64,000 bases of DNA from Bdellovibrionales bacterium (GTDB lineage: Bacteria > Bdellovibrionota > Bdellovibrionia > Bdellovibrionales > JAUICD01). The stretch covers positions 352,001-416,000 of the forward strand of contig CBDANC010000015.1 of NCBI GenBank assembly GCA_965197425.1. The letters are read 5' to 3'. The first letter of the stretch is position 1. The number at the start of each line of letters is the position of its first letter. The translations under genes and the position numbers were made by a program. The notes beneath the pieces were generated by a model, which saw only the letters and a program-made list of their open reading frames with translations, had not been told where the DNA came from and did no database searches. Shown here piece after piece: positions 4,517-49,177 of this stretch.

Positions 4517-5019
4517 AGGCAATCAGGCATTCTGGCAATCCGACATTCAGGGATCCGGTAATCAGTTATCGGTTAGCAGATAACAGATCTCAGATAACTG
4601 ATTGCCGGATCAAGTGTTTTTCCATAATTGGTATAAGAATCCCCCTAATGTATCTATTTCCTTTACGAGGTTTTTGTTGTCTATGATATCTAATATGGCC
4701 TGTACTTCTCTAAGGGAGCCTAGGCTTATCGCATAGAATCTTTTTCTATCTTTTGGTGTTGGTTTAGCACTTCCTTCTGCAATATTAAGGACAATGCTTA
4801 GAGTAGCTCTTTGGAATTGATTTCTAAGAGGTTCTCTTAGACAAAGCTTTTTTGAGTTTTGATAAAACTCTTTAGCTAGTTGGTATGTTTTTAATTTTTT
4901 CATAAAAAATTTCCTCCTTACTATCTTTTGATGGGAGGAAATTTTTTTGAAAAAATTAAATCAGTTGCCTGGTTACCGATATCAGTTCCCAGATAACAGA
5001 TCTAATCGATCATTCCGGA
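4517..5019 (-). mobile_element. Four-helix-bundle cassette copy B (heptamer-type leader)
   Basis: Begins at putA stop; ATCTG-type repeats; hairpin AAAAAATTTCCTCC/GGAGGAAATTTTTT abutting ATG; downstream 18/19-bp inverted repeat 4552-4570/4593-4611. Confidence 0.65.
4610..4903 (-). CDS. Four-helix-bundle protein (IVP/Avd-like), copy B
   Basis: 97 aa, NQFQRATLSIVLNIAEGSAK...SLGSLREVQ, ends LWKNT. Confidence 0.85.
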   Translation of the reverse strand: MKKLKTYQLAKEFYQNSKKLCLREPLRNQFQRATLSIVLNIAEGSAKPTPKDRKRFYAISLGSLREVQAILDIIDNKNLVKEIDTLGGFLYQLWKNT

Positions 5020-7917
5020 TTAGAAGAGGGAAGGGGAATGAGATGTCTGTGGAGCAAATCCTCTTCTAGTGCTATTTTCGGTGATACATATTGGTTCCAA
5101 AAATTGTAACAAATAATCTTTACCACCAGTTTTACTACCAACACCAGATAATTTTATTCCACCAAATGGGTGTCTGTTTACCATTGCTCCAGTTATGTTC
5201 CTGTTTATATAAATATTACCAGCCTCCAAGTGTTCTGTAACATATTCTATATTCTTAGGGCTTCTGGAATATATTCCACCTGTGAGACCATAGATAGTGT
5301 GGTTGGCAATATCAACTGCATGAGAAATGTTATCTGCTTTTAGAACAGATAATACTGGTCCAAAAATTTCAATTTGTGCTACAAAACAGTCCTTTGATAC
5401 ATCCGTGAAAATAGTTGGAGGAACATAAAATCCACCTTCAATTTTTTCTCCCCGATAGCTTATAGTGTTTTTGGTTTTTTCAATAATAGAGTTGATTCTA
5501 TCAAAAGCATCCTGACTTATTACAGGTCCTAAATGTACCCTGGGATCGGATGCATTTTCTTGAACCAAACTTTTTGTGGTGTTAATCAATCTATCCACAA
5601 ATTTTTGGTAAATTTGGTCGAATACAATTACTCTGCTGCAAGCTGAACATTTTTGACCAGAAAATCCAAAAGCAGAAGTTACAACTCCATCCACTGCTTC
5701 ATCCAGGTCTGCATTTGAATCGACAATTATAGAGTTTTTACCACCCATCTCTATTATACATTTCTTAACACCCCTCTGCCCCTCCTTAGTTTTAGAGGCA
5801 GCATCAGCCATTGCCAAACCAACTTCTTTAGAACCTGTAAAAGCGATTAAACTCACATCCTTATGTTCAACCAAGGCCTTACCTATTGTTTCACCTACTC
5901 CAGGTAAAAAGTTTATCACTCCTTTAGGTAACACTTCATTTGCAATGTCCATAAACATAGAGGCAATAACAGAACTTTCTTCAGCAGGCTTCATCACGAC
6001 TGTATTACCCGAAACTACACTAGCAGCAGTCATACCAGAAAGTATAGCCAACGGAAAATTCCAAGGAGCTATAACAGCACAAACTCCCTTAGATAAATAT
6101 TTATATTTTGTATACTCTCCCTTTATATCTCCAACAAAAATATCACCGTCCAAATGTCTCATGTGTTTAGCGTAATATCTTAAAAAATCTATGGCTTCAG
6201 TGATATCTGCATAGGCTTCTTCCCATGGTTTTCCAACCTCTAGTGTCTGTATGGTTGCAAAATCAAATCTACTTTCTAATATTTTGTCAGCTAGTTTATC
6301 TATAAGATCTGCTCTTGTAGATACACTCTCATTTTTCCACAATTTGTGTGCCTTTTTAGCTTCTTCCACGGCATGATCCACATCTTCTATTCTAGCTAAG
6401 TGGATTTTTCCTACAATCTCGTTAGTTTTTGATGGATTTATACTATCTAGAATTTGACCTGTCTTTATATGCTTGCCACCAATTACTAAGGGGCACTCTT
6501 TGATCTGCTTTTTGTTTCTTTCCAACGCTTCTAAGAATAACCGCCTGTTTTTTTCAATAGTAAAATCTAAGATTGGTTCATTTTCAAAAATTTTTGGTTT
6601 TGGATCAGGTTCTTCGGTGAAAGTAGGTTTATTTAATAGAAGATTATTATCCTGCTTTTGCTCAAACTTACTTAACAAAAATGACTCATTGGAAGTATTT
6701 TCTAAAAGCCTTCTTACTAGATAAGCCATTCCAGGAATAAGTTCTCCTATAGGGACATACTCTCTTATCCGTACTTGTTTTTCTACTAAAGCTCTTTTTA
6801 TTTCATCAGCCATTCCGTATAGCATCTGAATTTCTATTTCTACCTTCTTTTGATTAGCATAAGCAATACCATGTGATATTGATCTCACATTGTGAGAACC
6901 AATCGCAAGATTCATATATTCGTGATTATCTATTATTAACTTTGTACACTCTTCAAAATTAAAATCAGAGTTTCCCTTAATAGTGTAAACAGGGATAGGC
7001 CAATTTCTCTGGTCAGCCATTATAATCTCATGATCCCAATAAGCTCCCTTTACCAACCTAACTGTTATAGGAGTTTTTCTTTCGTTAAGTATTTGGATTA
7101 ACTTTTCTATATCTGAGAATGAAGATTTTAAATAAGCCTGTATCACTATTCCTAAGTGTGGATACGCTTTAAACTCATCTTCCATTATTATCTCTCTAAA
7201 CACTTCTAAAGTAATGTCTTTTAGATCAAAATGTTCCATATCTATGTTTATAAAAACATCATTTTTAATTGCGTCTGCTAAAATTGGTCTTAAACTTTCT
7301 TTGATTCTATTTTTTGAATCTTCCCAAGCAGCTACTTTTATGTGATCACAGATGGAACTTAGTTTTACTGATAAATTGGTTTGTGGGATTTTTTCATTTT
7401 CCTGTTTGAACTCTTTTTGCTTTGAAAAATATTTAATTAAACTCAGGTATGCACTCTGATACATCAGAGCTTCTTCTTTATTTAATGTGGCTTCCCCCAA
7501 TAAATCCAGGGTAAAATGCAAATTATTTTTTCTTCTCTTAAGCAAGGTTTTTAAGGCATCCTTTTCATCTTTACCTGCAATAAAAATTTTGCCCATTTGA
7601 TTTACTTGCCTCTTTACACCAGCAGCTACGGCAGCGGGTAGTAACTTGCCCACACCTAAGCCAAGGCCAAACATTTTTGGTAAACCACCATCTTGGGCGA
7701 AGTATTCGTGTAAAGTATTATAGATCTCCTCACTAGTAGTTAAACTAGGAAGTACATCCACAAACCTAAACATGTTAGTCTTGATGGTTTCATTTTTTAC
7801 ACACATTCGCATCATTTGGCCATACCACCAGTCTTTATTAAAAAAAGACTTTGTGTCATCACCCATTAGCTTAAAAATTTCTAAGCCAGTTTGTTTTGTG
7901 TAGTACTCAGTATCCAT
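5020..7917 (-). CDS. putA: Bifunctional proline dehydrogenase / P5C dehydrogenase
   Basis: RLVKGAYWD, AYLVRRLLEN, FTGS, EMGGKN, GQKCSACSR, EIFGP motifs. Confidence 0.95.
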   Translation of the reverse strand: MDTEYYTKQTGLEIFKLMGDDTKSFFNKDWWYGQMMRMCVKNETIKTNMFRFVDVLPSLTTSEEIYNTLHEYFAQDGGLPKMFGLGLGVGKLLPAAVAAGVKRQVNQMGKIFIAGKDEKDALKTLLKRRKNNLHFTLDLLGEATLNKEEALMYQSAYLSLIKYFSKQKEFKQENEKIPQTNLSVKLSSICDHIKVAAWEDSKNRIKESLRPILADAIKNDVFINIDMEHFDLKDITLEVFREIIMEDEFKAYPHLGIVIQAYLKSSFSDIEKLIQILNERKTPITVRLVKGAYWDHEIIMADQRNWPIPVYTIKGNSDFNFEECTKLIIDNHEYMNLAIGSHNVRSISHGIAYANQKKVEIEIQMLYGMADEIKRALVEKQVRIREYVPIGELIPGMAYLVRRLLENTSNESFLLSKFEQKQDNNLLLNKPTFTEEPDPKPKIFENEPILDFTIEKNRRLFLEALERNKKQIKECPLVIGGKHIKTGQILDSINPSKTNEIVGKIHLARIEDVDHAVEEAKKAHKLWKNESVSTRADLIDKLADKILESRFDFATIQTLEVGKPWEEAYADITEAIDFLRYYAKHMRHLDGDIFVGDIKGEYTKYKYLSKGVCAVIAPWNFPLAILSGMTAASVVSGNTVVMKPAEESSVIASMFMDIANEVLPKGVINFLPGVGETIGKALVEHKDVSLIAFTGSKEVGLAMADAASKTKEGQRGVKKCIIEMGGKNSIIVDSNADLDEAVDGVVTSAFGFSGQKCSACSRVIVFDQIYQKFVDRLINTTKSLVQENASDPRVHLGPVISQDAFDRINSIIEKTKNTISYRGEKIEGGFYVPPTIFTDVSKDCFVAQIEIFGPVLSVLKADNISHAVDIANHTIYGLTGGIYSRSPKNIEYVTEHLEAGNIYINRNITGAMVNRHPFGGIKLSGVGSKTGGKDYLLQFLEPICITENSTRRGFAPQTSHSPSLF

Positions 7918-9179: not shown

Positions 9180-9277
9180 CAGAGCTGGGCAACCCTGATA
9201 CTGAAAGTACCTTAGCTACACTTGTGCTTCGCACTGCACTTCGCTAAGGCAACTTTCAGTTTCAGTGAAGACCTTTA
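9180..9277 (+). repeat. Modular GAAGACCTTTA repeat with type I hairpin interior
   Basis: CAGAGCTGGGCAAC...ACTGAAAGT...ACTTTCAGT...GAAGACCTTTA; closely similar inverted copy at 9991-10089. Confidence 0.8.
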
Positions 9278-9337
9278 GTGTCATATTTTTTATTTGCATT
9301 TTGAGTGGTGGTGAGCGAAGAGTTTTGTTTGTGTGGG

Positions 9338-9380
9338 ACGGGATCAGCATGTGTCCAGTGTTGGATTAGGAAGACCTTTA
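9338..9380 (+). repeat. Short form of modular repeat ending at the exonuclease start codon
   Basis: ACGGGATCAGCATGTGTCCAG...GGAAGACCTTT-ATG. Confidence 0.65.
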
Positions 9381-9988
9381 TGTTTGTAGCGTTTGATTTA
9401 GAAACTACCGGTTTTATGCCTGGGGTTGATCGTATAATTGAAATAGGAGCAGTTAAATTTGATGGGCTAAAGCCTATAGATGCTTTTGTAAGCCTCGTAA
9501 ATCCTAGAATGGAAATACCACAATCATCAACCGACATAACCGGCATTACGAACGAAATGGTAAAAGATAATCCTCCTATAGAAAATTTGCTAGATGGGTT
9601 TGCCAAGTTTTGTAGCGGGCATCTGATGGTTGCACACAACGCCCCATTTGATTTTCAGTTTTTGGTAGAGGACATAAAAAGATATGAATCAAATTCACCC
9701 ACCAACTATATATTTGATACCTGCTCTATTTCTAGAAAAGTTTTTCCAGGGCTTATTAACTATAAATTAGGAACACTCACACATTATCTAAAAATTAAAT
9801 CCTCTGGATTTCATCGAGCAAAACAAGATGCAACCCTATGTGGGTATGTATTTGTAAATATCTTAAAAAAGATTAAAATGGAAGACTCAAGCATTGAGCT
9901 TTTTGATGCTTTAGCTAAACTTAGTAAAAATCCTCCACTAAAATTCCCTAAAATCCATAAAATTCATAAACAAGCCACATTATTTTGA
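9380..9988 (+). CDS. DEDDh 3'-5' exonuclease (DnaQ/PolC-exo-like)
   Basis: FVAFDLETTG, AHNAPFD, HRAKQDA motifs; start placed at ATG 9380 because the longer ORF reads through a repeat. Confidence 0.9.
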   Translation: MFVAFDLETTGFMPGVDRIIEIGAVKFDGLKPIDAFVSLVNPRMEIPQSSTDITGITNEMVKDNPPIENLLDGFAKFCSGHLMVAHNAPFDFQFLVEDIKRYESNSPTNYIFDTCSISRKVFPGLINYKLGTLTHYLKIKSSGFHRAKQDATLCGYVFVNILKKIKMEDSSIELFDALAKLSKNPPLKFPKIHKIHKQATLF

Positions 9989-9990
9989 TA

Positions 9991-10271
9991 TAAAGGTCTT
10001 CGCTAAAACTGAAAGTTGCCCAGGCGAAATGCAGTGCAAAGCACAAATGTAGCCAAGGTACTTTCAGTATTAGAGTTGCCCAGCTCTGGACACTGATGCC
10101 GATCCCGTTACATAAGGTCTTCCGAACGAGACAAAAATAAGGAGGCTACGCCTACTTTGGTTCAATTGGCTCACGGGATAAATCTTTATATTATCCAATT
10201 GAAATAACCTCCCTGTGGTCGGTTTTTTATCCGAGTGGTTGCCCGGCTCTGGAACAAGATGCTGATCCCGT
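9991..10271 (-). repeat. Two tandem modular repeats (9991-10108 type I; 10113-10271 type II carrying the 66-bp element)
   Basis: Each unit reads ACGGGATC.GCATC..T.TCCAGAGC.GGGCAAC...GAAGACCTT on the minus strand. Confidence 0.8.
10157..10222 (-). repeat. 66-bp hairpin miniature element, copy 2 (nested in modular repeat)
   Basis: Reverse complement 64/66 identical to 1035-1100; absent from equivalent repeat at 54449-54539. Confidence 0.85.
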
Positions 10272-10497
10272 CACACAAAGATTTTCCTATGTCCGTCTGA
10301 CTGATTGTCACTGTTCCCAGCCTGCCTGTTTGCCAGATCCAGAGATCATTTATTTTTAGTTGATTATTTGGTTGGATTTGTGTATGGATTTGTTCTGGTT
10401 ACATATTTTTGTAACTTTCCCTTGGCTTCCCTTGATTTTGTTATATTTGTTTTCGGTGGTCTGTGAGCCTCTGGGTTTTATTATTTTGGTGTTGTAT

Positions 10498-12505: not shown

Positions 12506-12518
12506 GGTAGGAGACCTA

Positions 12519-18759: not shown

Positions 18760-18877
18760 AAATCTTTTATTATAGGTTTATAGTTTAGTTACTGTTTGTA
18801 TTGGTTGACATTTACAAAACATTGATTATATAACCAGATTGTTATGGCTGAAATCTTTCAGATAACGGAGGTACTTA

Positions 18878-19129
18878 ATGACAAATGACGCTGCTGCAAA
18901 GGCAGAAATAGGAAAAACATATACTGGTAAGGTGGTTAAAGTTGTAGCTTTTGGGGCATTTGTAGAGGTGTTGCCTAATACTACAGGTCTTTTACATATA
19001 TCTGAAATTGATCATAAAAGAGTAAGACATGTTGAGGATTATATGAAAGAGGGTGATGAAGTTAATGTTAAGGTTTTAGATGTTGATAAAACTGGAAAAA
19101 TAAAACTATCTAGAAAAGCCCTTTTGTAG
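18878..19129 (+). CDS. Stand-alone S1-domain protein duplicated from the PNPase C-terminus
   Basis: Near-identical to the last ~75 aa of pnp; GGAGG SD upstream; TTGACA at 18805. Confidence 0.8.
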   Translation: MTNDAAAKAEIGKTYTGKVVKVVAFGAFVEVLPNTTGLLHISEIDHKRVRHVEDYMKEGDEVNVKVLDVDKTGKIKLSRKALL

Positions 19130-20475: not shown

Positions 20476-20628
20476 TTTATCCCCCTTTGATCTGACTTTC
20501 AGTTTTACATGAGAGGGGGGGGGGTGCATCAACATTTTAATTACCAGTTTTTTTAAAAGCTAGACTGGCCACAACCCACACCCTGCTTATAGTGCAAGCA
20601 TCTAAGCAAAATGTGGCTGTGTGGGCAG

Positions 20629-20883
20629 TTAATTTTTCATCAAAGCTTCATTAATAACGCTTTGGTATCCAACTTTTCTTTTCTTTGCTTCTTTTTTAGC
20701 CCATTTGATAATACTAGGGTGTAACCTGATAGAAATTGGAATGTATTTGTCCTGCTTCAAAGGACGTCCCCGTGAGGGGCGTTTTTTGCCAGTTACTTTT
20801 TCGATAGCTTTTCTGGCCGAGCTAACTTCTTTTTTTGTAATTCGTCTTGCTTTTTCAAATGAAAATTCTTTTATATTTTTCAT
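20629..20883 (-). CDS. brnA: BrnA-family antitoxin
   Basis: GRP...ISIRL...GYQSVINEAL; overlaps upstream BrnT-like gene. Confidence 0.8.
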   Translation of the reverse strand: MKNIKEFSFEKARRITKKEVSSARKAIEKVTGKKRPSRGRPLKQDKYIPISIRLHPSIIKWAKKEAKKRKVGYQSVINEALMKN

Positions 20884-21145
20884 ACCTATCCCTCTCTTTT
20901 TTGTTTGCTTTTCTAGCACTGATGATGCGGTAAACACTTTTAAATCTGATAGTGAAAATCACTACAAGAATGCCATCATCAGATTCTCCTATAATCCATT
21001 CCCTTACTTCATCCTTGGCAGAATGTTTTATATCAGGAGCAACAAGTGCAAAAGGATCGTCGAAGACAGTTACTGCTAAAGAAAAATGTATTCCGTGCTT
21101 CTTGACATTTTGCTTTAACTTATTTTCGTCCCATTCAAATTGCAA
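20855..21145 (-). CDS. brnT: BrnT-family toxin
   Basis: FEWDENK...NVKKHGIHF, RIISARKANKKE. Confidence 0.88.
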   Translation of the reverse strand: MQFEWDENKLKQNVKKHGIHFSLAVTVFDDPFALVAPDIKHSAKDEVREWIIGESDDGILVVIFTIRFKSVYRIISARKANKKERDRYEKYKRIFI

Positions 21146-37759: not shown

Positions 37760-39523
37760 TTGATGAAAGAGTTTATAAAGGATCTTCGAAGAACACATAT
37801 GTGTGGCAAAGTTGATCTTACAAGTGTTTCCAAAGAGGTTGTATTGATGGGTTGGGTTGATACAGCTAGGGATCATGGTGGAAAGTTATTTGTTGATCTA
37901 AGAGATAGAACTGGGATTGTTCAAATTGTTATAGATGGTGATGTGGCTTGTGCTTCTGAAATAAGATCAGAATATGTGATAGCAGTATTAGGCAAAGTCT
38001 CGAAGAGGCCTTCTGGTATGAAAAATAGTGATTTAGATACAGGGGAAATTGAAGTTAAGGTTAGTAGGGTAGAGATTTTATCTAAATCAAAGGCTATGCC
38101 CATTCAGTTAAATGACAATAGGGTGGGGGAAGACATAAGGCTTAAGTATCGATACTTGGATTTAAGAAGCACAAAGATGCAGAAAAATTTATTAACGAGA
38201 CATAAGTTTTATCAGGTAGTAAGACATGCGTTGTGTGAAGAGAATTTTTTAGAAATTGAGACACCTATTTTATTCAAGAGTACTCCCGAAGGAGCTAGAG
38301 ACTTTTTGGTTCCATCCCATATTTCTAAACACAAATTTTATGCTCTACCCCAAAGCCCTCAGATGCTAAAGCAGCTTTTGATGATTTCTTCGTTTGATAG
38401 ATATTTTCAGATAGCTAAGTGTTTTAGGGATGAGGATTTAAGGTCTGACCGGCAGCCTGAATTTACCCAAATAGATTTGGAAATGAGTTTTGTGGATGTG
38501 GATCAAGTGCTGGAGTTAAGTGAAAAACTTTTGAGAGCTATTTGGGATTCTTTGTTGGGTGTCAAAATAGGGGAGATCGAGAGATTAACTTATGAAGATG
38601 CGATGAATAGATTCGGTACTGATAAACCGGATACTAGGTATGATCTTGAGCTTTTAGATTTATCTAAGGACTTCGAAAGTTGTGGCTTTGGTATTTTTGA
38701 AAATATTTTGTCTAAAGGTGGTGTAATTAAAGGATTGAAGATTTCATGTTCTGTTTCTAGATCAGGGCTGGATAAGTTGACAGAGCTTGTAAAGTCTCAT
38801 GGTGTTGGTGGGTTAATGTGGTGTAGAGATGTTGATGGAAAACATTCTGGTCCTCTTTGTAAGTTTATAAATGATAAGAAGTTAAATGGTGTATTAGACA
38901 AGGTTGGATTTGTGAAAGGTGATTTATTGTTGGTGGTTTCTTCTGACAATTGGCAAGTGGCTTGTAGTGCTATGGGAGCAGTTCGAAGTTTCTTTGCTTC
39001 ACAAAGTAAAGAGAACAAGCGTGAGGAATATAAGTTTGTATGGGTTACTGATTTTCCTCTGTTTGAGTGTGATGATGGAAAATGGAGTGCAAGTCATCAT
39101 CCATTTACAGCTCCAATTGATTCTGATTGGAAGTTGTTAGAAAAGGGTGATTTAGAAAGTTTGGGAAAGGTTAAGGCTAAGGCATATGATCTGGTTTGTA
39201 ATGGAAATGAAATTGCTGGTGGTAGCATAAGGATACACAAGTTTTCTGATATGGAATTAGTGTTTAAGACACTTTCTAAGTTTTCTGGTGTGGATACTTC
39301 GAAATTTTCTTTTTTTACAGATGCATTAAAGTATGGAACACCTCCTCATGGTGGTATCGCATGGGGTGTGGATAGAATAATCATGTTACTGTGTAATGTT
39401 GGTTCCATTAGAGATGTGATAGCTTTTCCAAAAACTACCAGTGGTACATGTTTAATGTCTGATGCCCCAAGTACAGTGGAAGATGATCAGCTACTAGACC
39501 TGGGATTAAAGGTGGTCAGGTAG
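37760..39523 (+). CDS. aspS: Aspartyl-tRNA synthetase (possibly non-discriminating)
   Basis: RDHGG, PQSPQ, FRDEDLR, GGSIRIH, PPHGG. Confidence 0.96.
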   Translation: MMKEFIKDLRRTHMCGKVDLTSVSKEVVLMGWVDTARDHGGKLFVDLRDRTGIVQIVIDGDVACASEIRSEYVIAVLGKVSKRPSGMKNSDLDTGEIEVKVSRVEILSKSKAMPIQLNDNRVGEDIRLKYRYLDLRSTKMQKNLLTRHKFYQVVRHALCEENFLEIETPILFKSTPEGARDFLVPSHISKHKFYALPQSPQMLKQLLMISSFDRYFQIAKCFRDEDLRSDRQPEFTQIDLEMSFVDVDQVLELSEKLLRAIWDSLLGVKIGEIERLTYEDAMNRFGTDKPDTRYDLELLDLSKDFESCGFGIFENILSKGGVIKGLKISCSVSRSGLDKLTELVKSHGVGGLMWCRDVDGKHSGPLCKFINDKKLNGVLDKVGFVKGDLLLVVSSDNWQVACSAMGAVRSFFASQSKENKREEYKFVWVTDFPLFECDDGKWSASHHPFTAPIDSDWKLLEKGDLESLGKVKAKAYDLVCNGNEIAGGSIRIHKFSDMELVFKTLSKFSGVDTSKFSFFTDALKYGTPPHGGIAWGVDRIIMLLCNVGSIRDVIAFPKTTSGTCLMSDAPSTVEDDQLLDLGLKVVR

Positions 39524-39778
39524 GCAGGCAATCGGGCAGTCAGGTAGGCAGGCAATCGGGCAGTCAGGTAGGCAGGCAATCGGGCAGTCAGGTAGGCAGG
39601 CAATCGGGCAGTCAGGTAGGCAGGCAATCGGGCAGTCAGGTAGGCAGGCAATCGGGCAATCGGGCAATCGGGCAATCGGGCAATCGGGCAATCGGGCAAT
39701 CGGGCAATCGGGCAATCGGGCAATCGGGCAATCGGGCAATCGGGCAGTCAGGCAGTCAGGCAGTCAGGCAGTCAGGCA
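39515..39778 (+). repeat. 264-bp octamer-periodic tandem array
   Basis: 6x GTCAGGTAGGCAGGCAATCGGGCA, then 11x ATCGGGCA, then 4x GTCAGGCA. Confidence 0.95.
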
Positions 39779-39953
39779 ATTGCCTCCTTTTTTTAAAAAA
39801 TATTTCCTCCCAGCTAAAAACTATGGAGCAAAAAAATAATCCGGCAGTCAGGCAAACAGGCAAACAGGCACACCGGCAATCCGGGATCTGGTGATTGATT
39901 AAATTTTCTAAAAAAATTTCCTCCCATCAAAGATGGTAAGGAGGAAATTTTTT

Positions 39954-40247
39954 ATGAGAAAATTTAGAACTTATCAGTTAGCGGTTCAATTCTATAATAA
40001 TTCTAAGAATTTATATTTAAAAGAACCGCTAAAGAATCAATTTCAGAGAGCTACCTTAAGCATTGTGCTCAATTTAGCAGAAGGAAGTGCCAAACCTACA
40101 ACCAAAGACAGAAGAAAATTCTACAGAACCAGCCTAGGCTCACTTAGAGAAACACAAGCTATACTGGATCTCATAGATCATAAAAAGCTACTAAATGAAG
40201 CAAATAAACTAGGAGGATATCTTTACAAACTGTGTAAGAATACATAA
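39954..40247 (+). CDS. Four-helix-bundle protein (IVP/Avd-like), copy C
   Basis: 97 aa from ATG 39954 after GGAGG; ends LCKNT. Confidence 0.85.
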   Translation: MRKFRTYQLAVQFYNNSKNLYLKEPLKNQFQRATLSIVLNLAEGSAKPTTKDRRKFYRTSLGSLRETQAILDLIDHKKLLNEANKLGGYLYKLCKNT

Positions 40248-40303
40248 ATCGGGCAGTCGGGCAATCAGGTTTCCCTGCGGGGCTTTTTTGAAGTTAGCAG
40301 CTT

Positions 40304-40426
40304 CACCGCTTTATAACGAAAATTTTAACATGCTCATGGCAATACCTTTAGCCTCGGAGACGCTTCGCTTGGACTCCTCATTAAAGATATTGCCACTTGC
40401 CTGTGTTTTTATGTTTATAGACGGTG
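40304..40426. repeat. Fold-back (MITE/REP-like) segment
   Basis: GGCAATACCTTTA/TAAAGATATTGCC inner and CACCG/CGGTG outer inverted repeats; single copy in window. Confidence 0.5.
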
Positions 40427-40431
40427 TAATT

Positions 40432-40535
40432 GATGGGAGAGGGTGGAGAAATTTTTTTGAAAAAATTAAATCAGTTGCCTGATTACCGATATCAGTTCCC
40501 AGATAACAGATACCAGATAACTGATATCAGATATC
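40432..40535 (-). repeat. Gene-less (solo) cassette leader nearly identical to copy B leader
   Basis: AAATTTTTTTGAAAAAATTAAATCAGTTGCCTG.TTACCGATATCAGTTCCCAGATAACAGAT shared with ~4939-5001. Confidence 0.8.
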
Positions 40536-40606
40536 GGGTAGTATACTCTCCCTTGGTTTAGTTTATTTTATAAAAGTTATGGTCTTTGGGTGTTTGATTT
40601 ATAATT

Positions 40607-42982
40607 TTGAAGATGCCAAGGTTCATCCTTTTATTAGTGTTATCTATCTCTTTTTCATATGTCAAAGTAGAGGCTTATCATCCAGGTGGTATATCCATGG
40701 GGAATATGGGTTGTCCCGTGTCCCAGAAAAAAAAGAGTAGGCTGGAGCATTTACAAGATGAGTTAGACGAGCTGGAAGAAGATTTAGATCATATGGAAGG
40801 CCGTTGTGAAGATCAAGAAGGTGACATAGAGGATTTATTAAGTCAGGTGATAGATGATATTAAGGAAGAAAATGATGATGCTAGCTCTAGTGATAAGATA
40901 GGCGACAATCAAATTAGACAAATAGAAAGACTGTTAGAAGACTATGTATTGAAAAATGGAGATGAAAATGTCAATGTTATAGGATGTGCTGACGGCACAG
41001 GAGGGGTGAGTTTTAGACCTCCTAGTGGTTACGATTTATTAGCAAAACAATTTTCTAGTAGCTATGTTTTAAGAATGTTGCAAGTAGCATTGGGCCCGCA
41101 GGCCTTTGCAATCGAATGTCCTGAAGGCAGAGATTGTTACGAACGAGAATGTTCAGGAGCTGTGTGCAATGAATTATATGCAAGAACTGGTAATTGTTGT
41201 GCCCATCAATCGTACGCAAATAGGTGCGCCAGCGTTTGTGGTGGTGGACCTACTCCTCCTCAACCCCCAGTTGTAACTGATCCAACCGCAGAGGACAGTT
41301 GTAGGCTTCTCATTGATTCGGGTGCTAACTGCGAAAGTTTAAAAGCAGGTGGTTGTTGTGGAACTACTGCTCTTGGAAGTCGTTGTTCGACTCAATGTTC
41401 AGGTTTGACGCCAGTAGGATCAGAATGTGATTTATTGTTTAGAGGATTTGTCTCACCTACTTGTCCACAAATTAAAGCAAAAAACTGTTGTAGTGACTCC
41501 AGGACCCCTAGCGAGTGTAAACAGCAGGGTCAACCCTGTGGTAATCCAGCACCTACACCTACACCAGTTGTACAACCCAGTCGATGTGAACAAGAACATG
41601 TGTGTGAGCAAATAGAGAATCAGGTGGAAAGCTTAGGCCGTGATCTTTTTGATGCTGATGATGACTGTGACGAATTAAGAGAAGAAGTACAAGAGTGTAG
41701 AAGTGATATGGAAAGATTAAGAGGAGAAATAAGAGAACTAAAAAGGTTAGTAAGGCGGGGAGAAAGAAGAGAGAGAAGATCTAGTAGAGACAGAGAAAAT
41801 AGCGGCAGGGATGGTGGAACCTGGTGTGTCGATTGCTCCACTGGTTTTAACAAAACCAGCTTTTTCACAAAACTTGGTGCGTCTATGATAATGGATGGCC
41901 TTGGTATGTACCTAACCAAAGAAGCTCACGATAATGCAGGAGAAGCAGCTGAAGCTATTGGTCATACATACAAACCTCCCCCTACACTTGGTTATGGTTT
42001 TGGAATGACAGCCGGAGCACTATACGGCGGTATGTGGGGCGGCCGCGGAAGAGGTGGCTGGGGCTGTGCAGGTGGAATGTACCCAGGTGGTCCGTTTGGA
42101 CGAATGGGTGGCGGACACGGTGGTATCTACGGACCTGCAGGTGGAATGTTCGGCTTTCCAGGAGGCGGTGGATATCCAACGGGCTTCCCTGGTGGAGGAG
42201 CCTTACTTCCAGGAGCATTTCTTCCTGGTATGGGCAGAGGAGGAATGGGAATAGGAATAGGTGGAATGGGTGGCCTCGGTATGGGCGGTCCATTTGGTGG
42301 AATGGGCGGTGGTCCATTCGGCGGAATGGGTTACCCTGGCTATATGACAGGTCCAGGATTTGGTATGGGCGGCAGGGGTAGTATAGGAATGGGTGCTGGT
42401 ATGGGCGGTCCATTTGGTGGAATGGGCGGTGGTCCATTCGGCGGAATGGGTGGAATCGGAATAGGTGCTGGCATGGGCGGTCCATTTGGTGGAATGGGCG
42501 GTGGTCCATTCGGCGGAATGGGCGGAATGGGCGGAATGGGTGGAATCGGAATAGGTGCTGGTATGGGTGGTCCATTTGGTGGAATGGGCGGAGTAGGAAT
42601 AGGCGGTGGTCCATTTGGTGGTGGTGCATTCGGTGGTATGGGTGGTCCATTTGGTGCTGGAGGAGCTGGTGGTGCGTATATAGCAGCTCAGCAAGCTCAA
42701 GCGCAGGCCAGACTTGAATATCAACAACGCATAATGCAAGCTTACCAACAACAGATGCAGGCGCAGGTCGCAAAGCAACGATCTGTGATGGCACTACAAC
42801 AAGAAATTGGTACTCTATATCAGCGTATGTACAACGTTCAGTATGGTGGTAATATGTACGGGGGAACTGGTTTTGTAGGAGCTGCTACTATAGGAGTAGG
42901 TGGTGTAGTTGGTGGTGGAGCGTCAGTAGGCAGAGGCCCAATACGAGGAAACAGAGGTACTCCTAGACCTAGCGGAAGATAA
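40607..42982 (+). CDS. Secreted Cys-rich / coiled-coil / Gly-Met-rich low-complexity protein
   Basis: Signal peptide, Cys-rich modules, GGPFGGMG repeats, Gln/Ala-rich helix. Confidence 0.75.
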   Translation: MKMPRFILLLVLSISFSYVKVEAYHPGGISMGNMGCPVSQKKKSRLEHLQDELDELEEDLDHMEGRCEDQEGDIEDLLSQVIDDIKEENDDASSSDKIGDNQIRQIERLLEDYVLKNGDENVNVIGCADGTGGVSFRPPSGYDLLAKQFSSSYVLRMLQVALGPQAFAIECPEGRDCYERECSGAVCNELYARTGNCCAHQSYANRCASVCGGGPTPPQPPVVTDPTAEDSCRLLIDSGANCESLKAGGCCGTTALGSRCSTQCSGLTPVGSECDLLFRGFVSPTCPQIKAKNCCSDSRTPSECKQQGQPCGNPAPTPTPVVQPSRCEQEHVCEQIENQVESLGRDLFDADDDCDELREEVQECRSDMERLRGEIRELKRLVRRGERRERRSSRDRENSGRDGGTWCVDCSTGFNKTSFFTKLGASMIMDGLGMYLTKEAHDNAGEAAEAIGHTYKPPPTLGYGFGMTAGALYGGMWGGRGRGGWGCAGGMYPGGPFGRMGGGHGGIYGPAGGMFGFPGGGGYPTGFPGGGALLPGAFLPGMGRGGMGIGIGGMGGLGMGGPFGGMGGGPFGGMGYPGYMTGPGFGMGGRGSIGMGAGMGGPFGGMGGGPFGGMGGIGIGAGMGGPFGGMGGGPFGGMGGMGGMGGIGIGAGMGGPFGGMGGVGIGGGPFGGGAFGGMGGPFGAGGAGGAYIAAQQAQAQARLEYQQRIMQAYQQQMQAQVAKQRSVMALQQEIGTLYQRMYNVQYGGNMYGGTGFVGAATIGVGGVVGGGASVGRGPIRGNRGTPRPSGR

Positions 42983-43020
42983 CGGCAGAGTTTCAAATTA
43001 ATTGCCGATTGGTTTATAAA

Positions 43021-43323
43021 ATGTCTGATTCTAAAAATGGTGTGGAGCTTGAAGTTGTATTAGATGGTGAGTCCCACAAAATTACCTTAAATGAAGGTGA
43101 AACAGTTTTAGAAGCTTCACTCAGAGTTGGGCTTGATGCACCTTATTCTTGTATGTCTGGAGTTTGCACAACTTGTCAGGTAACCGTTCAGTCAGGTGAT
43201 CTGGAAATGGAAAATAACGATGCACTTTCTGATGAAGAAGTGGCTCAAGGTAACTACCTTGCCTGCCAAGCTACACATAAATCCAACAAACCCATCAAGG
43301 TGAAGTATATAAATGAGTGGTAG
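43021..43323 (+). CDS. 2Fe-2S ferredoxin
   Basis: PYSCMSGVCTTC...LACQ. Confidence 0.9.
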   Translation: MSDSKNGVELEVVLDGESHKITLNEGETVLEASLRVGLDAPYSCMSGVCTTCQVTVQSGDLEMENNDALSDEEVAQGNYLACQATHKSNKPIKVKYINEW

Positions 43324-43384
43324 TTGTTTTATTTTCTAAGGTTGGTTGGCTTCATACTTCTTTGACTAGTATAATATTATCAAT

Positions 43385-44143
43385 ATGCTCAGCAGATATT
43401 ACGAAATTATAGTGGTGCTTTTTTCAAAAGAGCTCAAGGTTAGCTACAAGCACAATATATTAGGATACCTTTGGTCTATTGCTAACCCTCTGGCCCATGC
43501 AATATTATTCTACTTTGTATTTGAGCTGGTTGCCAAAATACAAATGGAAAACTTTGCACTGTTTTTAGTAACAGGTCTATTCCCATGGCAGTCTATTAGT
43601 AATTCAATTGTCTCCGCACCTGGACTACTTGTTGGTAACAGAGAGTTAATAAAAAAAGTAGCCTTTCCAAGTGTTCTGATAAATATCTCATCAGTTCTTC
43701 AAATCATGTTTCACTATATCTTATCTCTGCCCATTATTTTTGTATTTGTTTTGTTGTTTAACCAACAACTGTCTTTCTGGTATATATTGGGGATACCTAT
43801 ACTGTGTGTTTTGCACTTTTTGTTGTGTTTATCTATCAATGTTATCTGTTCGTCCTTGAATGTATTTTTTAGAGATTTAGAAAGACTTGCGCAGGTAGCG
43901 GTGCTTTTTTTATTCTATTTCACTCCTGTTGTGTATAGCATGGATATGGTACCGGATAAATATGTGTATTTGATCAACCTAAACCCAATAAGCCCAATTA
44001 TAACTAGCTGGAGAAAACTTTTTTTAGAACACGATATAAACAATCAGTATCTATACTTTTCTATTTTTTGGGTTTTAATTTTGTGTTCTTTTGCATATTT
44101 CATCTATAAAAAACTATCATGGAGATTTGCGGAGTCACTATGA
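43385..44143 (+). CDS. wzm: Polysaccharide ABC exporter permease (Wzm-like)
   Basis: LGYLWSIANPL, IKKVAFP, FRDL, TPVVY, LNP. Confidence 0.88.
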   Translation: MLSRYYEIIVVLFSKELKVSYKHNILGYLWSIANPLAHAILFYFVFELVAKIQMENFALFLVTGLFPWQSISNSIVSAPGLLVGNRELIKKVAFPSVLINISSVLQIMFHYILSLPIIFVFVLLFNQQLSFWYILGIPILCVLHFLLCLSINVICSSLNVFFRDLERLAQVAVLFLFYFTPVVYSMDMVPDKYVYLINLNPISPIITSWRKLFLEHDINNQYLYFSIFWVLILCSFAYFIYKKLSWRFAESL

Positions 44144-44886
44144 AAGATGCTATCAGTTTTTCCAATGTGTATAAGTCTTATCCTCTATATGTCCATCTAA
44201 CTGGTGGTATTAAGAGTGTATTATTCAATTTTTATAGATCACTTAAAATGTTTAGAGGTACCTCCTATAAGGTTTTGAACGGAATATCTTTTAATATAAA
44301 AAAAGGTGAGTGTGTTGGAATTGTAGGTGGTAATGGTGTGGGAAAAAGTACAATGCTTGGGCTTATCGCTAGAGTGTTAAGGCAAGATTCTGGTGTAATA
44401 GAAATAGATGGCAGAGTGACTCCCTTGCTGGAGTTAGGATCTGGTTTTCACCCTGACCTCACTGGTATTGAAAATATAAAACTAAACGGAGTATTGATAG
44501 GACATAGTAGAAAAAAAATACAACAACATCTAGAACAAATCATAGAGTTTTCCGAAATAGGTGATTATATAGACCAGCCAGTAAGAATGTATTCCTCTGG
44601 TATGATTGCCAGACTTGGGTTTTCCATAGCATCTTTTCTTGATCCACAGATTTTACTCGTAGATGAGACCATGACAGTAGGTGATATTGGTTTTCAAAAA
44701 AAATGTTATGACAAACTAGAAGAATTTAAACAAAAAGGTGTTACCGTTGTGGTAGTTTCACACTTAATAGAGGACATCACAAAAGTATGCAATAGAGCTA
44801 TATGGCTAACAAATAAGGGCATAGCTATGGATGGTGAGGTTTCCCAAGTTATCTTGGAATATAAAAAACATTTTAAACATGAATAA
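44140..44886 (+). CDS. wzt: Polysaccharide ABC exporter ATPase (Wzt-like)
   Basis: GGNGVGKST, GFHPDLTG.EN, YSSGM, LLVDE. Confidence 0.9.
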   Translation: MKDAISFSNVYKSYPLYVHLTGGIKSVLFNFYRSLKMFRGTSYKVLNGISFNIKKGECVGIVGGNGVGKSTMLGLIARVLRQDSGVIEIDGRVTPLLELGSGFHPDLTGIENIKLNGVLIGHSRKKIQQHLEQIIEFSEIGDYIDQPVRMYSSGMIARLGFSIASFLDPQILLVDETMTVGDIGFQKKCYDKLEEFKQKGVTVVVVSHLIEDITKVCNRAIWLTNKGIAMDGEVSQVILEYKKHFKHE

Positions 44887-45799
44887 AATAGTTGTTAAAG
44901 ACTCAGATAAAGTTATAGAAATTCCTCAGCATGATATAAATCAAAAAGACATTGAACAAAAAACAGCCTTTTTTAGAGAACAAACTAAAACAAATAATAC
45001 CACAGAACTTATTCCATACATTGACCTAACCAACCTAAATGAAACTGATACAAAAGATGATATTAAAAAACTTGTAAATAAGGCTTTGTCTTTAAAACAT
45101 AAAAATTTACCATCTGTAGCAAGCATTTGTATCTATCCTTCCATGCTAAAGTTTGCAAAAGAAAGACTGGATGGAAACTCCACTTGTAGTGAAAACTCCG
45201 CTCGTAGTGGATACTCCACTGGTAGAAGTAGCAAAATCAATGTGGAAACTCCACTGGTAATTGCTACAGTTACGGGTGGTTTTCCCTCCGGAAAACTTAA
45301 CTTAGAATCAAAGTTGATAGAAACTAAAGAAGCAATCCAAATGGGGGCAGATGAAATTGACTTTACTATTTGTAGAGACTACTGTAAGCCTTCCGAAGCC
45401 CAAAAATTATTTGATGAAATTTACAATATAAAAAAACTAGTGGGAAGAAGACCTCTAAAGGTAATTTTGGAGACAGAAGAGCTACATAGCTATGACAAAA
45501 TAAAATTGGCATCCAACATAGCACTCTATGCAGGTGCTGACTTTATCAAAACCTCAACAGGAAAAATTAAAGGTCCACTTGATCACAAAATAGCCTCTTT
45601 TCTAGTTATTATGGATAGCATCCTAGATTTCTACAACCAAACAAAAAAGCAAGTTGGTATAAAGGTATCCGGAGGTATTAGTGGGGTGGATACAGCCATG
45701 CTCTTTTTTAATATGGTACAAACACAAATGGGGGAAAAATGGGTAAGCCCCAAATTTTTTAGAATAGGCTCAAGTAAACTTATGGATAATATTGTTTAG
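44879..45799 (+). CDS. deoC: Deoxyribose-phosphate aldolase with repeat-derived insertion
   Basis: IDLTNL, GADEID, LKVILET, GADFIKTSTGK, KVSGGI, RIGSS. Confidence 0.92.
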   Translation: MNKIVVKDSDKVIEIPQHDINQKDIEQKTAFFREQTKTNNTTELIPYIDLTNLNETDTKDDIKKLVNKALSLKHKNLPSVASICIYPSMLKFAKERLDGNSTCSENSARSGYSTGRSSKINVETPLVIATVTGGFPSGKLNLESKLIETKEAIQMGADEIDFTICRDYCKPSEAQKLFDEIYNIKKLVGRRPLKVILETEELHSYDKIKLASNIALYAGADFIKTSTGKIKGPLDHKIASFLVIMDSILDFYNQTKKQVGIKVSGGISGVDTAMLFFNMVQTQMGEKWVSPKFFRIGSSKLMDNIV

Positions 45800-46368
45800 A
45801 TCGGGCAATCGGGCAATCGGGCAATCAGTCAATCAGGCAATCGGGCAATCGGGCAATCGGGCAATCAGTCAATCAGTCAATCAGGCAATCGGGCAATCGG
45901 GCAATCGGGCAATCAGGCAAACTGGCTATGGTCTCCTTTTTTTAAAAATATTTCCTCCCAGATAAAAACCATGGAGCAAATATTTTTTTCAAAAAAAGGA
46001 GACTATATACATTATGAAAAATTTTAAAACATATCAATTAGCTGTTCAGTTCTACAATAATTCTAAAGGGATATACCTAAAAGAACCACTCAAAAATCAA
46101 TTCCAAAGAGCTATATTAAGCATAGTATTAAATTTGGTTGAAGGTAGTGCAAAGTTCAGTAACAAAGAAAGACGAAAATACTACAGAACCAGTTTAGGCT
46201 CACTTAGAGAAACACAAGCTATACTAGATCTCATAGATCATAAAAAGCTAACAGAAGAAGCAAGTAGGTTAGGAGGGTATCTTTACAAACTTTGCAAGAA
46301 TACATAATCGAGGAACCAGGCAACGGATCACAGATTCCAGATAACGGATCCCCGATCTAGTCGGGCAA
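45800..46368 (+). mobile_element. Four-helix-bundle cassette copy D
   Basis: 15 octamers (ATCGGGCA/ATCAGTCA/ATCAGGCA) 45800-45919 starting right after deoC TAG; GTCTCCTTTT/AAAAGGAGAC hairpin; gene. Confidence 0.65.
46014..46307 (+). CDS. Four-helix-bundle protein (IVP/Avd-like), copy D
   Basis: 97 aa, ends LCKNT. Confidence 0.85.
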   Translation: MKNFKTYQLAVQFYNNSKGIYLKEPLKNQFQRAILSIVLNLVEGSAKFSNKERRKYYRTSLGSLRETQAILDLIDHKKLTEEASRLGGYLYKLCKNT

Positions 46369-46833
46369 TTATGAGCGTCCAGATCGGATCTTAGATTGCA
46401 TTCGAGCCATGAGACTTACAGCCATTCTTTCATGAGCCTCACACATTCTAAGCTCATCTTTTCTATAACTTTTTTGACTTGGTGTTAGAGCACCCATTTC
46501 TATTTCCATTTCATAATCCAGCTTGTTGGACCTGATGCTTTCCAACTCCTTTGATTGCTGCTTAAACAACTTCACAAGACCACTATTAGGAGCAATCTCA
46601 AGCCACTCCTGCTTGCTCTTATACCAGCTAACCATTCTTAGAAATCTTGCCTTGTTCTTGGCCAGAGTAAATTTAGGATAATCAGACTCATCTAGATGTA
46701 GTATGTTATCCTGTCTCCACCTCTCCTTGTTCTTATCATCACTCCAAGGATTCTGTTTGTCCCAAGGCTTTACCTTCTTTGACAGAGAATCCGTTACAGA
46801 AGGATCCCCTCTATCCGTTTCGATATTATCCAC
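46369..46833 (-). CDS. Hypothetical protein
   Basis: 154-aa ORF with purine-rich SD-like upstream. Confidence 0.6.
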   Translation of the reverse strand: MDNIETDRGDPSVTDSLSKKVKPWDKQNPWSDDKNKERWRQDNILHLDESDYPKFTLAKNKARFLRMVSWYKSKQEWLEIAPNSGLVKLFKQQSKELESIRSNKLDYEMEIEMGALTPSQKSYRKDELRMCEAHERMAVSLMARMQSKIRSGRS

Positions 46834-47032
46834 GCTCTCTCTCCCTTTTAAACACTACGGCTAACCTAAAACAAGGCCTGCCAAAGGGCCATAAAACATT
46901 ATTCTCCTACCAAAAAGCAAGGTAACACTACCATAATGCCATTAACATATCAATCAACTGACAGTGAATAATTTACATTTGTTGGTCATTTATTAGGTAT
47001 ATAAAAATTACTATATATTTATTCTTTGCATT

Positions 47033-48688
47033 TTGTTACGAAGCACCATGGTTTTGAAATTATCTGGTGTTTTGGTTTTTATTTTTGTTGGTGTGGCCAG
47101 TTATATTTATGGCCAGAGTGGTTCTGATGTAGTGGGTAATTGGTATAGTGTGTTGCCCCCTGTATTTGCGGTTACTGTAGCTCTTATTACCAACAATGTT
47201 TTTATAAGTTTAATTGGTGCGGTTCTTCTTGGTGCTTTTTTAATCAAGATGCCTTCTGGTGAATTTCTTACGGGTGTACTTGATTCACTCTACAAGTTTT
47301 TTAGTATTCCTATTCTGGAGTTAACAGATACTTTTAATCTTCAGGTCATTGGTTTTGTTGTATGTGTTTTGGCTTTGATCTCTGTTGTTATAGTTTCTGG
47401 TGGTTTAAAGGCTGTGATTCGGTACATATCGGTTTATGCGAATGGCAGAAAGTCTACTAATTTTGTAACCTTTGTTTTGGGAATTTTGATGTTCATAGAT
47501 GATTATGCCAATACTATGTTGGTTGGCTCTTCTATGAGAGGAGTCTATGATGCAAATAAAATTTCGAGGGAAAAGCTGGCATTCATAGTTGATTCAACAG
47601 CAGCTCCCATTGCTGGGCTTGTTTTTATAAGTACTTGGGTTGGGTATGAAGTTGGTCTTTTGGGTCAGGTAGCGGGTGATTTAACCCTAGGGGTAGGGGG
47701 TTTTTCTATGTTTTTTGATGCAGTAATTTTTAGATTTTACTGCATATTTACATTGGTGTTTGTGTTGGTGAACATATTTTTGGATAAAGATTTTGGACCA
47801 ATGGCCTCTGCTGAGGCCAGTACCACACAGGTTCCTGTTAGTAAAGAAATTCAATCAGACAAAAATGCTGTGCCTAGTGTTATGGTTGCGCTAGTGCCAA
47901 TGGTGTTTTTGGTTTTGTATGTATTTATGGGTCTGTGGATAGATGGTGGAGGAGGTAAGGTTATAAGTGAAAAGTCCGTTTTATCTCTTCTTAGTTTTTC
48001 TGATTGGAAAGATGTAGTATCCGCTTCAGAAAATAATATATTGATACTTTTTCATGCCTCTCTATACGGGCTTATTTTGGCTATGATTTTGGGAATATCT
48101 ATCTCAAAGGTTCATGTAAGAAATATCTTTAAGGGCGCACTACGTGGTGTTAAAAAGAGTATGCTTCCTATTTCTATCCTAGTGCTGGCATGGTCTATTA
48201 AAACAGTTTGTAAAGAACTTGAGACAGGACCGTTTTTGGTATCAATCTTGGCAGACTCTATATCTCCAGTTTGGTTTCCTATAATACTTTTTGTTATCGC
48301 CGGATTAACAGCATTTACTACCGGTACTTCTTGGGGAACCATGGCTATTCTCATTCCATTTGCAATTCCATTGGCAAGTGCATTGGACGGAGGAGCTTAC
48401 GGGCTGGTTACCATACTTTCCGTGGCTACTATTTTAGACGGTGCAATTTTTGGGGATCACTGCTCTCCGATTTCAGACACAACAATTATGAGTTCGATAT
48501 CAAGTGGATGTGATCATATGTCACATGTAAAAACCCAAGCACCTTACTCAGTGGTTATAGCATCTGTAGCTTTGATTGGTTATTACTTATCTAGTATGGT
48601 CCATTTTGTAATAACATTTGCTTTAGGCATTGCTTTAATATTTCTGTTACATAAATATCTATGTAAGCTCTGGAACAAAAATAGTTGA
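47033..48688 (+). CDS. NhaC-family Na+/H+ antiporter-like transporter
   Basis: FIDDYAN, SREKLAFIVDSTAAP, TGTSWGT, GDHCSPISDTT. Confidence 0.9.
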   Translation: MLRSTMVLKLSGVLVFIFVGVASYIYGQSGSDVVGNWYSVLPPVFAVTVALITNNVFISLIGAVLLGAFLIKMPSGEFLTGVLDSLYKFFSIPILELTDTFNLQVIGFVVCVLALISVVIVSGGLKAVIRYISVYANGRKSTNFVTFVLGILMFIDDYANTMLVGSSMRGVYDANKISREKLAFIVDSTAAPIAGLVFISTWVGYEVGLLGQVAGDLTLGVGGFSMFFDAVIFRFYCIFTLVFVLVNIFLDKDFGPMASAEASTTQVPVSKEIQSDKNAVPSVMVALVPMVFLVLYVFMGLWIDGGGGKVISEKSVLSLLSFSDWKDVVSASENNILILFHASLYGLILAMILGISISKVHVRNIFKGALRGVKKSMLPISILVLAWSIKTVCKELETGPFLVSILADSISPVWFPIILFVIAGLTAFTTGTSWGTMAILIPFAIPLASALDGGAYGLVTILSVATILDGAIFGDHCSPISDTTIMSSISSGCDHMSHVKTQAPYSVVIASVALIGYYLSSMVHFVITFALGIALIFLLHKYLCKLWNKNS

Positions 48689-49177
48689 TCGGACAACCAA
48701 GTAGCAGTCAATCGGGTGTCTGATTAGATCTGTGATCTGGCACTCAGGGATCTGATATCTGCATCCGGGATCTGGCATCAAGCATCCGTAATATTCTTAA
48801 TTTTTCCAAAAAAATTTCCTCCCATCAAATGATGGTAAGGAGGAAATTTTCTATGAAAAAATTAAAAACATACCAACTAGCTAAAAAGTTTTATCAAAAC
48901 TCAAAAAAACTCTGCTTAAAAGAACCACTAAAAAATCAGTTCCAAAGAGCTACCTTAAGCATTGTACTAAATATCGCAGAGGGGAGTGCCAAACCAACAA
49001 TAAAAGAAAGAAAAAGATTCTATGTAATAAGCCTAGGATCGCTTAGAGAAGTACAAGCCATACTAGATCTGATAGAACACAAAAACCTAATGGAAGAAGC
49101 AAATATACTCGGAGGATTTTTATACCAATTATGGAAAAATACATGATCCCAGGATGCCAGATCCCAGATCTGGTATT
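48689..49177 (+). mobile_element. Four-helix-bundle cassette copy E (heptamer-type leader)
   Basis: Starts at nhaC stop; GATCTG-type repeats; AAAATTTCCTCC/GGAGGAAATTTT hairpin; gene. Confidence 0.65.
48853..49146 (+). CDS. Four-helix-bundle protein (IVP/Avd-like), copy E
   Basis: 97 aa from ATG 48853; ends LWKNT. Confidence 0.85.
   Translation: MKKLKTYQLAKKFYQNSKKLCLKEPLKNQFQRATLSIVLNIAEGSAKPTIKERKRFYVISLGSLREVQAILDLIEHKNLMEEANILGGFLYQLWKNT

Follow-up and report, generated by a model that had tools for sequence, protein, structure and literature searches.

Stop-codon-adjacent placement of an apparently promoterless four-helix-bundle cassette in a Bdellovibrionales genome: a likely outcome of selection and gap geometry with a modest residual bias

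The window analysed here, a 64,000-nucleotide stretch of a Bdellovibrionales genome (assembly GCA_965197425.1, contig CBDANC010000015.1, positions 352,001 to 416,000 of the forward strand), contains five copies of a repeated cassette, each made up of an open reading frame (ORF) for a four-helix-bundle protein, a palindromic leader, and arms of 7- or 8-nt repeat units that open with GATC, AATC or AGTC. Depending on the copy, the arms are direct or inverted. A first-pass annotation of this DNA had noted that the cassettes lie directly behind the stop codons of host genes, and had taken this as a sign of insertion aimed at mRNA 3' ends by an RNA- or transcription-linked mechanism.

On the plus strand, the stop codon of an RDD-family gene (715..717) is followed 14 nt downstream by a 5' array (732..812) whose 8-nt units resemble ATCGGGCA, a long palindromic leader with a GGAGAC ribosome-binding site (RBS) on both strands (813..889; z -6.8 for the predicted stem), a 119-aa PF05635 ORF with a 66-nt in-frame insert at about 1035-1100 (894..1253), and a 3' array with an inverted, collapsed leader remnant (1260..1470), beyond which lies a convergent stop at 1479-1481. 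The putA cassette, on the minus strand, opens with a 5' arm (4963..5022) inside the putA stop TAA (5020-5022) and continues through a short palindromic leader spanning the RBS, the ATG and the first codons (4891..4962; z -6.8), the second arm of which is a mirror start on the opposite strand, to a 97-aa four-helix-bundle ORF (4610..4903) and a 3' arm predicted to pair with the 5' arm (4515..4611). At aspS (plus strand) a 264-nt array (39514..39777) provides the aspS stop (39521-39523) and is followed by a truncated long leader, a second array and a short palindromic leader (39783..39968), an arrangement of nested cassettes; then come a 97-aa ORF (39954..40247), which is 94.5% identical to the copy at C15:418263 of the same genome, and a 3' array with a 168-nt non-coding module and an inverted leader remnant (40247..40538). 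The module itself (40269-40436) has four copies in the genome and sits within the loop of the inverted leader palindrome. The deoC stop TAG (45797-45799, plus strand) overlaps the GATC of a 128-nt 5' array (45797..45926), which leads into a long palindromic leader (45927..46005; z -7.2), a 97-aa ORF (46014..46307) and a 3' arm that reaches a convergent stop at 46369-46371 (46306..46371). Lastly, the nhaC stop TGA (48686-48688, plus strand) overlaps the initial GATC of the 5' arm (48686..48795), and a short palindromic leader across the RBS and ATG (48796..48866; z -4.9), a 97-aa ORF (48853..49146), a 3' arm inverted relative to the 5' arm, and 5 nt then extend to the convergent stop of a DHH gene at 49178-49180 (49145..49180).

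The five junctions are thus as first described, with the putA, deoC, nhaC and aspS arrays overlapping the stop and the RDD array lying just beyond it. All five copies are indeed co-oriented with the upstream gene, although the RDD copy, with its in-frame insert, is not plainly intact as had been stated, and convergent genes flank three of the five (RDD, deoC and nhaC), so that a copy would match one neighbour whichever way it faced. The GATC reported at several left ends is present, but GATC or AATC is simply the start of the repeat unit. As a Dam-like or otherwise special target the motif was rejected, being part of the repeat unit and as common in a cassette-free genome of the same genus, G001 (10786 vs 11050).

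The encoded protein, typically 97 aa long, is Avd-like and belongs to PF05635/TIGR02436, a family characterised by a four-helix fold and a pentameric state. All five window ORFs score 47-63 bits against the PF05635 hidden Markov model (curated cut-off 33.8), the three tried against the TIGR02436 model score 49-63 bits (curated cut-off 24), and the structure 2GSC gives a weak sequence match to the cassette protein (residues 25-73, E=6.6e-5). In the 1.6-Mb genome to which the window belongs (G000) tblastn finds 20 cassette loci. Thirteen full-length uninterrupted ORFs are 68-94.5% identical at the nucleotide level and have a median dN/dS of 0.11 (78 pairs), and the protein has therefore been under purifying selection during the spread of the copies; most likely it serves the element's own spread, through putative binding of the repeats or the palindrome. 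Many copies are decayed, and ORF-less arrays or leader remnants occupy at least 21 further gaps. In collapsed leaders, at C12:103355, C12:118507, C13:84594 and window 1330-1360, the palindrome arms are fused and the RBS and ATG are gone. Five of the 20 cassette ORFs carry a 66-nt module in frame at an identical codon and, because its carriers do not group on the tree, repeated insertion at one site is likely; the module is found in the window at 1035-1100, 10157-10225 and 55665-55723, and has 60 BLAST matches in the genome.

The earlier remark that the leaders hold no obvious promoter is borne out, within the power of a weak test: sigma-70-like sites number two in 19 leaders, against 3.3 expected from shuffles and 54 of 157 control upstream regions. 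In the deoC and nhaC leaders none lies on the sense strand. The leaders are predicted to form stems of 25-30 pairs that cover the RBS and, in one type, also the ATG (z -4.9 to -7.2), and in the three of 20 copies folded the two arms are predicted to pair with each other, at nhaC (z -5.7), at putA (z -5.6) and weakly at deoC (z -2.4). In a read-through transcript the RBS is predicted to be folded into the stem, and read-through alone would therefore not give translation. Host read-through transcription, on which the cassettes were proposed to rely, is thus plausible, given the lack of a promoter-like excess and the sense lean of distant copies (16:4, p=0.012), but a locked RBS would make it insufficient. 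The IS200 leader is reported to lock its RBS in read-through RNA in this way (PMC4513863), and RNase III is reported to excise a Coxiella intervening sequence (IVS) bearing an ORF of the PF05635 family (PMC4990558); by analogy, RNase III might act on the cassette leader.

The leader is also symmetric as DNA. An inverted repeat of at least 18 nt is present in 11 of 19 leaders of G000, with the second arm consisting of an RBS and a truncated start on the opposite strand. In distant genomes, including other Bdellovibrionota, the palindrome can lie between two head-to-head family genes: such twins occur at 18 of the 62 distant loci with enough flanking sequence (L145, L147, L148, L150, L154-L156, L158, L159, L164, L167, L170, L171, L174, L181, L182, L185 and L188, arranged around a near-perfect palindrome), and the paired genes are 45-69% identical (14 pairs aligned). 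Inverted repeats of at least 18 nt are found at 16 of 18 twin loci, compared with 6 of 44 single loci and none of 57 control stretches. Since the leader is palindromic, with a mirror start or twin genes, the core has two-fold symmetry and no orientation of its own, and single copies are likely to be one-armed forms of it. Covariation between arm and codons was rejected as proof of RNA structure, as the same arm doubles as the start of a mirror-image twin gene. Two twin pairs follow one another at L147, and at L218 two tandem four-helix-bundle genes adjoin a reverse transcriptase of group II intron type encoded on the other strand.

Close relatives differ in whether the cassette occupies a given site. 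In two runs of one study (X3 and X5), whose contigs are about 95% identical to the window and whose reads were compared over window 40000-57000, the nhaC-DHH site is empty: position 48678 is joined to 49173 via 22 other letters, 17 nt separate the two stops, and NhaC ends in W-N-K-S-G-stop instead of the W-N-K-N-S-stop of the window, with the stop at an equal codon position. Against this empty allele no target duplication is visible at this one site, and some 12-14 gap bases are absent from the filled allele. The gap between deoC and its convergent neighbour measures 151 letters in X3 versus 575 in the window, and in X5 the deoC stop appears to run into a short array and the 168-nt module as at 40248, which suggests the same array carrying other cargo; window 40457-40538 is skipped in both runs. 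More distantly, the same-genus genome G001, in which tblastn finds no match to the cassette protein, is syntenic with G000 at 779 of 1291 gaps, and the occupied syntenic sites are empty there, among them the putA site, where the gap is 106-110 nt. AspS of the window is two residues longer than in G001, the array having displaced the old stop and provided a new one. Across the order the occurrence is patchy, with matches to the protein in 12 of 31 genomes. Leaders are nested at aspS, RDD, C13:69754 and C15:418263, and old arrays are likely to have been reused as landing targets.

Searches for helper enzymes gave no RVT_1 match in G000 (99% complete), G001 or G002 (90% complete), a result that runs counter to the RNA-linked mechanism proposed at first; RVT_1 is present in G003 and G004. 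Y1_Tnp, and with it any RAYT (Y1) transposase, IS110, ISL3 and rve also have no match in G000, in a search confined to these families and DDE_Tnp_1, and G002 lacks matches to all four as well as to RVT_1, yet holds 14 matches to the cassette protein. The single DDE_Tnp_1 gene of G000 (C11:5853-7499, 548 aa, among duplicated ankyrin-like genes) was rejected as a helper, its flanks matching only their own contig and not the cassette loci.

Gene calls from a hexamer model and ARAGORN (our own scripts) place all 20 copies of G000 between protein or tRNA genes and none in an rRNA gene. Eleven lie in convergent gaps (one assignment, at C13:84594, depends on a 58-aa ORF), five are tandem-sense, two tandem-antisense and two divergent, against 210 convergent, 940 tandem and 209 divergent among the 1359 gaps of the genome. 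The genome-wide comparison of orientation and distance suggested in the first-pass annotation accordingly agrees with it in part: convergent gaps are enriched (11/20 vs 15.5%, p=5e-5), and 16 of the 20 copies have a co-oriented upstream gene versus 50% expected from random gap choice (p=0.006). However, 11 of these 16 are automatic, because a convergent gap always gives a co-oriented neighbour, and given the gap type orientation is not significant (tandem 5:2, two-sided p=0.45). Four copies (C6:2369, C14:346130, C13:259487 and C15:163753) lack a co-oriented upstream gene, three of them with uninterrupted 97-aa ORFs, and the two ends of the cassette are equally close to a stop, the 5' ends at a median of 4.5 nt (n=16) and the 3' ends at 9.5 nt (n=10; p=0.43), figures that leave out six 3' ends with no detectable unit and use uncorrected ends, the regex end-finder having misplaced C12:103355, putA and nhaC (corrected 5' median about 2-4 nt). 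Both findings argue against mRNA 3' ends as the aim of insertion. What does hold is the position itself: 18 of the 20 occupied gaps include one or more gene 3' ends.

The dimensions of the gaps account for much of this. Unoccupied convergent gaps in G001 have a median of 1.5 nt (n=50 syntenic), and the six of ten occupied convergent sites that could be matched measure -12, 2, 7, 18, 32 and 110 nt there; closeness to stops is therefore largely forced, since empty convergent gaps are only a few bases long. Ends that face a start codon lie at least 37 nt from it in eight of eight cases (p=0.0005). Inspected by eye, the copies at C13:259487, C15:163753 and C6:2369 retain the promoter-side sequence of G001 and end at, or close to, a -35-like hexamer (TTGACA-like or TTGCTT), the copy at C6:2369 lying between two back-to-back promoter regions. 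The cassette occupies three kinds of position and can face either way in them: from a stop to the next promoter, from one stop to another, and from one promoter to another that stands back to back with it. Its end opens with (T)GATC or (T)AATC and is able to supply TGA, TAA or TAG, and five protein-gene junctions (putA, aspS, deoC, nhaC and C15:204822) overlap the upstream stop because the terminal T with GATC or AATC makes TGA or TAA; TGATC opens arrays remote from stops too. Two of the 20 copies begin, in sense, 0-4 nt behind a tRNA (C14:311152, tRNA-Trp; C13:28040, tRNA-Arg), and at tRNA-Trp the array begins at the CCA end. The genome also holds a second, larger REP-like family (window 9180-10290, 54435-54690 and 63890-63940), which occupies more than 100 gaps genome-wide, is spread evenly across gap types and is nearly missing from G001.

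Two related genomes show less of the pattern. G002 and G004, family-level relatives carrying the same leader and units at 14 and 23 loci, together have 13 sense, 12 antisense, 7 convergent and 5 divergent copies (tandem 14:11 and 11:10 under stricter ORF rules), and only one of 17 measurable arrays lies within 20 nt of the upstream stop, although a signal could be blurred here, many of these copies being broken or lying nested within other repeats. Neither the even tandem split nor the distances fit mRNA-3'-end targeting. A wider scan took the best 80 of 544 confirmed stretches, of which 8 duplicates were removed and 48 of the remaining 72 were classifiable; Pfam confirms 41 of the 54 ORFs that flank the 28 tandem loci. 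The broad count of 21 sense to 7 antisense among the 48 was discarded, as 15 of the loci hold two opposed copies, and removing these leaves 33 single-copy loci. Copies are in sense to the upstream gene in 16 of 20 cases in G000, 20 of 37 in G002 and G004, and 29 of 33 among the distant singles.

We conclude that the stop-codon pattern is likely to be mostly the product of ordinary selection and geometry, with a modest residual bias; the position of the cassette was probably decided in the main by the survival of insertions in a genome dense with genes, and probably not by an aim at mRNA ends. An insertion that hits a gene, a promoter or a ribosome-binding region would be purged, whereas one in or just before a stop would be tolerated because the end of the element restores a stop codon; short local deletions would trim the gap, and old arrays would serve again as landing sites, yielding nested copies. 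With less assurance, the cassette may lack a promoter and be transcribed by host read-through, its leader may block translation for as long as the stem is neither opened nor cut, and dependence on read-through together with a locked leader could give a soft bias towards retaining sense copies. A convergent-gene excess of insertion sequence (IS) elements is reported in 68 of 116 genomes and ascribed to selection, which acts there against disrupted promoters and ribosome-binding sites (Plague 2010, PMC2942039), and stop-encoding repeats are described as accumulating at ORF ends in Beggiatoaceae (PMC4679880).

Several observations weigh against so simple an account. Leaving out promoter zones lowers the convergent excess (P=0.011-0.091), in keeping with selection, as does counting transcription-unit boundaries alone (P=0.018-0.096), yet under several nulls it stays borderline (P=0.011-0.096). 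The second repeat family is convergent in 17 of 111 gaps and the cassette in 11 of 20 (p=3e-4), and plain tolerance therefore does not act equally on every repeat; an insert that is larger and rich in hairpins may have a stronger polar effect within operons, or there may be a real insertion bias. The putA junction lies within about 9 nt of the stop though the gap is 106-110 nt. Among the 33 distant singles, 13 are convergent, 16 tandem-sense, 4 antisense and none divergent, and the 16:4 lean falls to 9:4 (p=0.27) once tRNA and transfer-messenger RNA (tmRNA) sites are removed, 12 of the 33 being sense copies with a tRNA or tmRNA at most 500 nt upstream (L198, L200, L201, L208-L211, L214-L216, L219 and L220), six of these at tRNA-Leu in related genomes. 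Pooled tandem counts, in which kin are not independent, are 34:18 (p=0.036). The leaders without an excess of sigma-70-like sites, the convergent excess, the distant sense lean and the tRNA/tmRNA neighbours form a residue in favour of the targeting reading, which is only partly supported.

Such a residue could arise from a DNA-level bias of insertion, in either orientation, towards sites where transcription ends or collides (convergent ends, tRNA and tmRNA 3' ends), later sharpened by selection. We regard this as possible but unlikely: it would explain the excess over the second repeat family, the frequency with which tiny empty targets have been struck, the lack of divergent copies among the 48 classifiable distant loci and the neighbourhood of tRNA and tmRNA genes at home and in distant genomes, but G002 and G004, with 7 of 37 copies convergent and 5 of 37 divergent, are near the gap proportions of G000, two copies of G000 itself occupy divergent gaps, and the six tRNA-Leu cases amount to one site. 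Less likely again is a two-fold promoterless element without a transposase or reverse transcriptase of its own that homes to transcript ends, of which the rRNA IVS would be one case. Its central palindrome would offer a locked RBS to read-through from either side, stem processing would switch on the Avd-like protein, and stop codons, tRNA/tmRNA 3' ends and rRNA helices would be the homing targets. It is also doubtful, and slightly more so, that copies are retained for host benefit, as terminators or stabilisers of mRNA 3' ends in the manner of REP/SPRITE-type repeats: those repeats are reported to show a convergent 3'-end bias and to influence mRNA stability (PMC3184786), and the cassette stems are strong by prediction, but sites are empty in close relatives, a terminator scan found no match on the sense strand within the deoC or nhaC leaders or arms, and many copies have decayed. 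Insertion of cassette RNA at mRNA 3' ends or stops, copied back into DNA and always in sense, is very improbable, for although the stop overlaps, the junction at the tRNA CCA end, the lack of a visible target duplication at nhaC and the relation to Avd, a partner of the reverse transcriptase of diversity-generating retroelements (DGRs; PMC10053308), would suit it, an upstream gene in sense is missing for 4 of the 20 copies of G000 and for 17 of the 37 of G002 and G004, G000 and G002 lack RVT_1 matches, the overlap is explained by a TGATC/AATC terminus also found away from stops, and twin head-to-head cassettes have no single sense.

If placement is mainly a matter of surviving insertions, the analysis separates what geometry and selection provide from the small part that calls for a mechanism, namely the convergent excess, the sense lean and the tRNA/tmRNA neighbours. 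For the spread of the very large IVP/Avd-like family beyond retroelements, G000 offers dated, nested and empty sites of a transposase-less cassette; homing to transcript ends, if true, would give bacterial genes a new way to move.

The window also shows other repeats and duplications. deoC carries an in-frame insert of 18-nt units (45155-45260) that is missing in X3 and X5, and the family of these units has 28 BLAST matches, 18 of them within called genes. A 791-aa ORF (40607-42982) with no Pfam match contains a Gly-Met-Pro-rich repeat region (42242-42931) whose length varies in other runs. Local duplications at 18508-19128 and 20137-22142 involve the end of pnp (251 nt, 87%) and the ends of two paralogous ORFs (251 nt, 92%).

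A literature search that took in few subscription papers and no supplements found no description of such cassettes outside rRNA or of their placement. The closest known systems are the 23S rRNA IVS (S23p/PF05635; Coxiella, PMC4990558, and inserts of the candidate phyla radiation, PMC11270868), which encode the same protein family, above cut-offs, and are, like the apparently promoterless cassette, small units in or behind a host transcript; the arm pairing predicted for some cassette copies would correspond to the closing stem of such an IVS. Here, however, there are 20 intergenic copies and none in rRNA, the arms are tandem repeats, direct in some copies, the leader is a two-fold palindrome, and the ORF is under purifying selection whereas that of Coxiella is reported to be decaying (PMC4990558). 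Intergenic IS elements share the excess between convergent genes (PMC2942039), but the cassette has no transposase, shows no visible target duplication at the one resolved site and ends in repeat arrays. The left end of IS200 (PMC4513863) likewise locks an RBS in a leader stem, as predicted for the cassette; IS200, though, is described as encoding a Y1 transposase and as carrying a terminator against impinging transcription, whereas in the cassette the stem is formed by a DNA palindrome that includes a mirror start, and G000 gave no Y1_Tnp match. REP/BIME, SPRITE and BOX elements (PMC3184786) and the TAACTGA repeats of Beggiatoaceae (PMC4679880) are short repeats at gene 3' ends with convergent bias and repeat-supplied stops, but are not known to carry a four-helix-bundle gene, and in the cassette genome no RAYT-type transposase was found. 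Finally, the Avd protein of DGRs is a homologous four-helix-bundle protein (PMC10053308), although in G000, which has no reverse transcriptase match, the genes for its relatives are carried by multi-copy, stand-alone cassettes.

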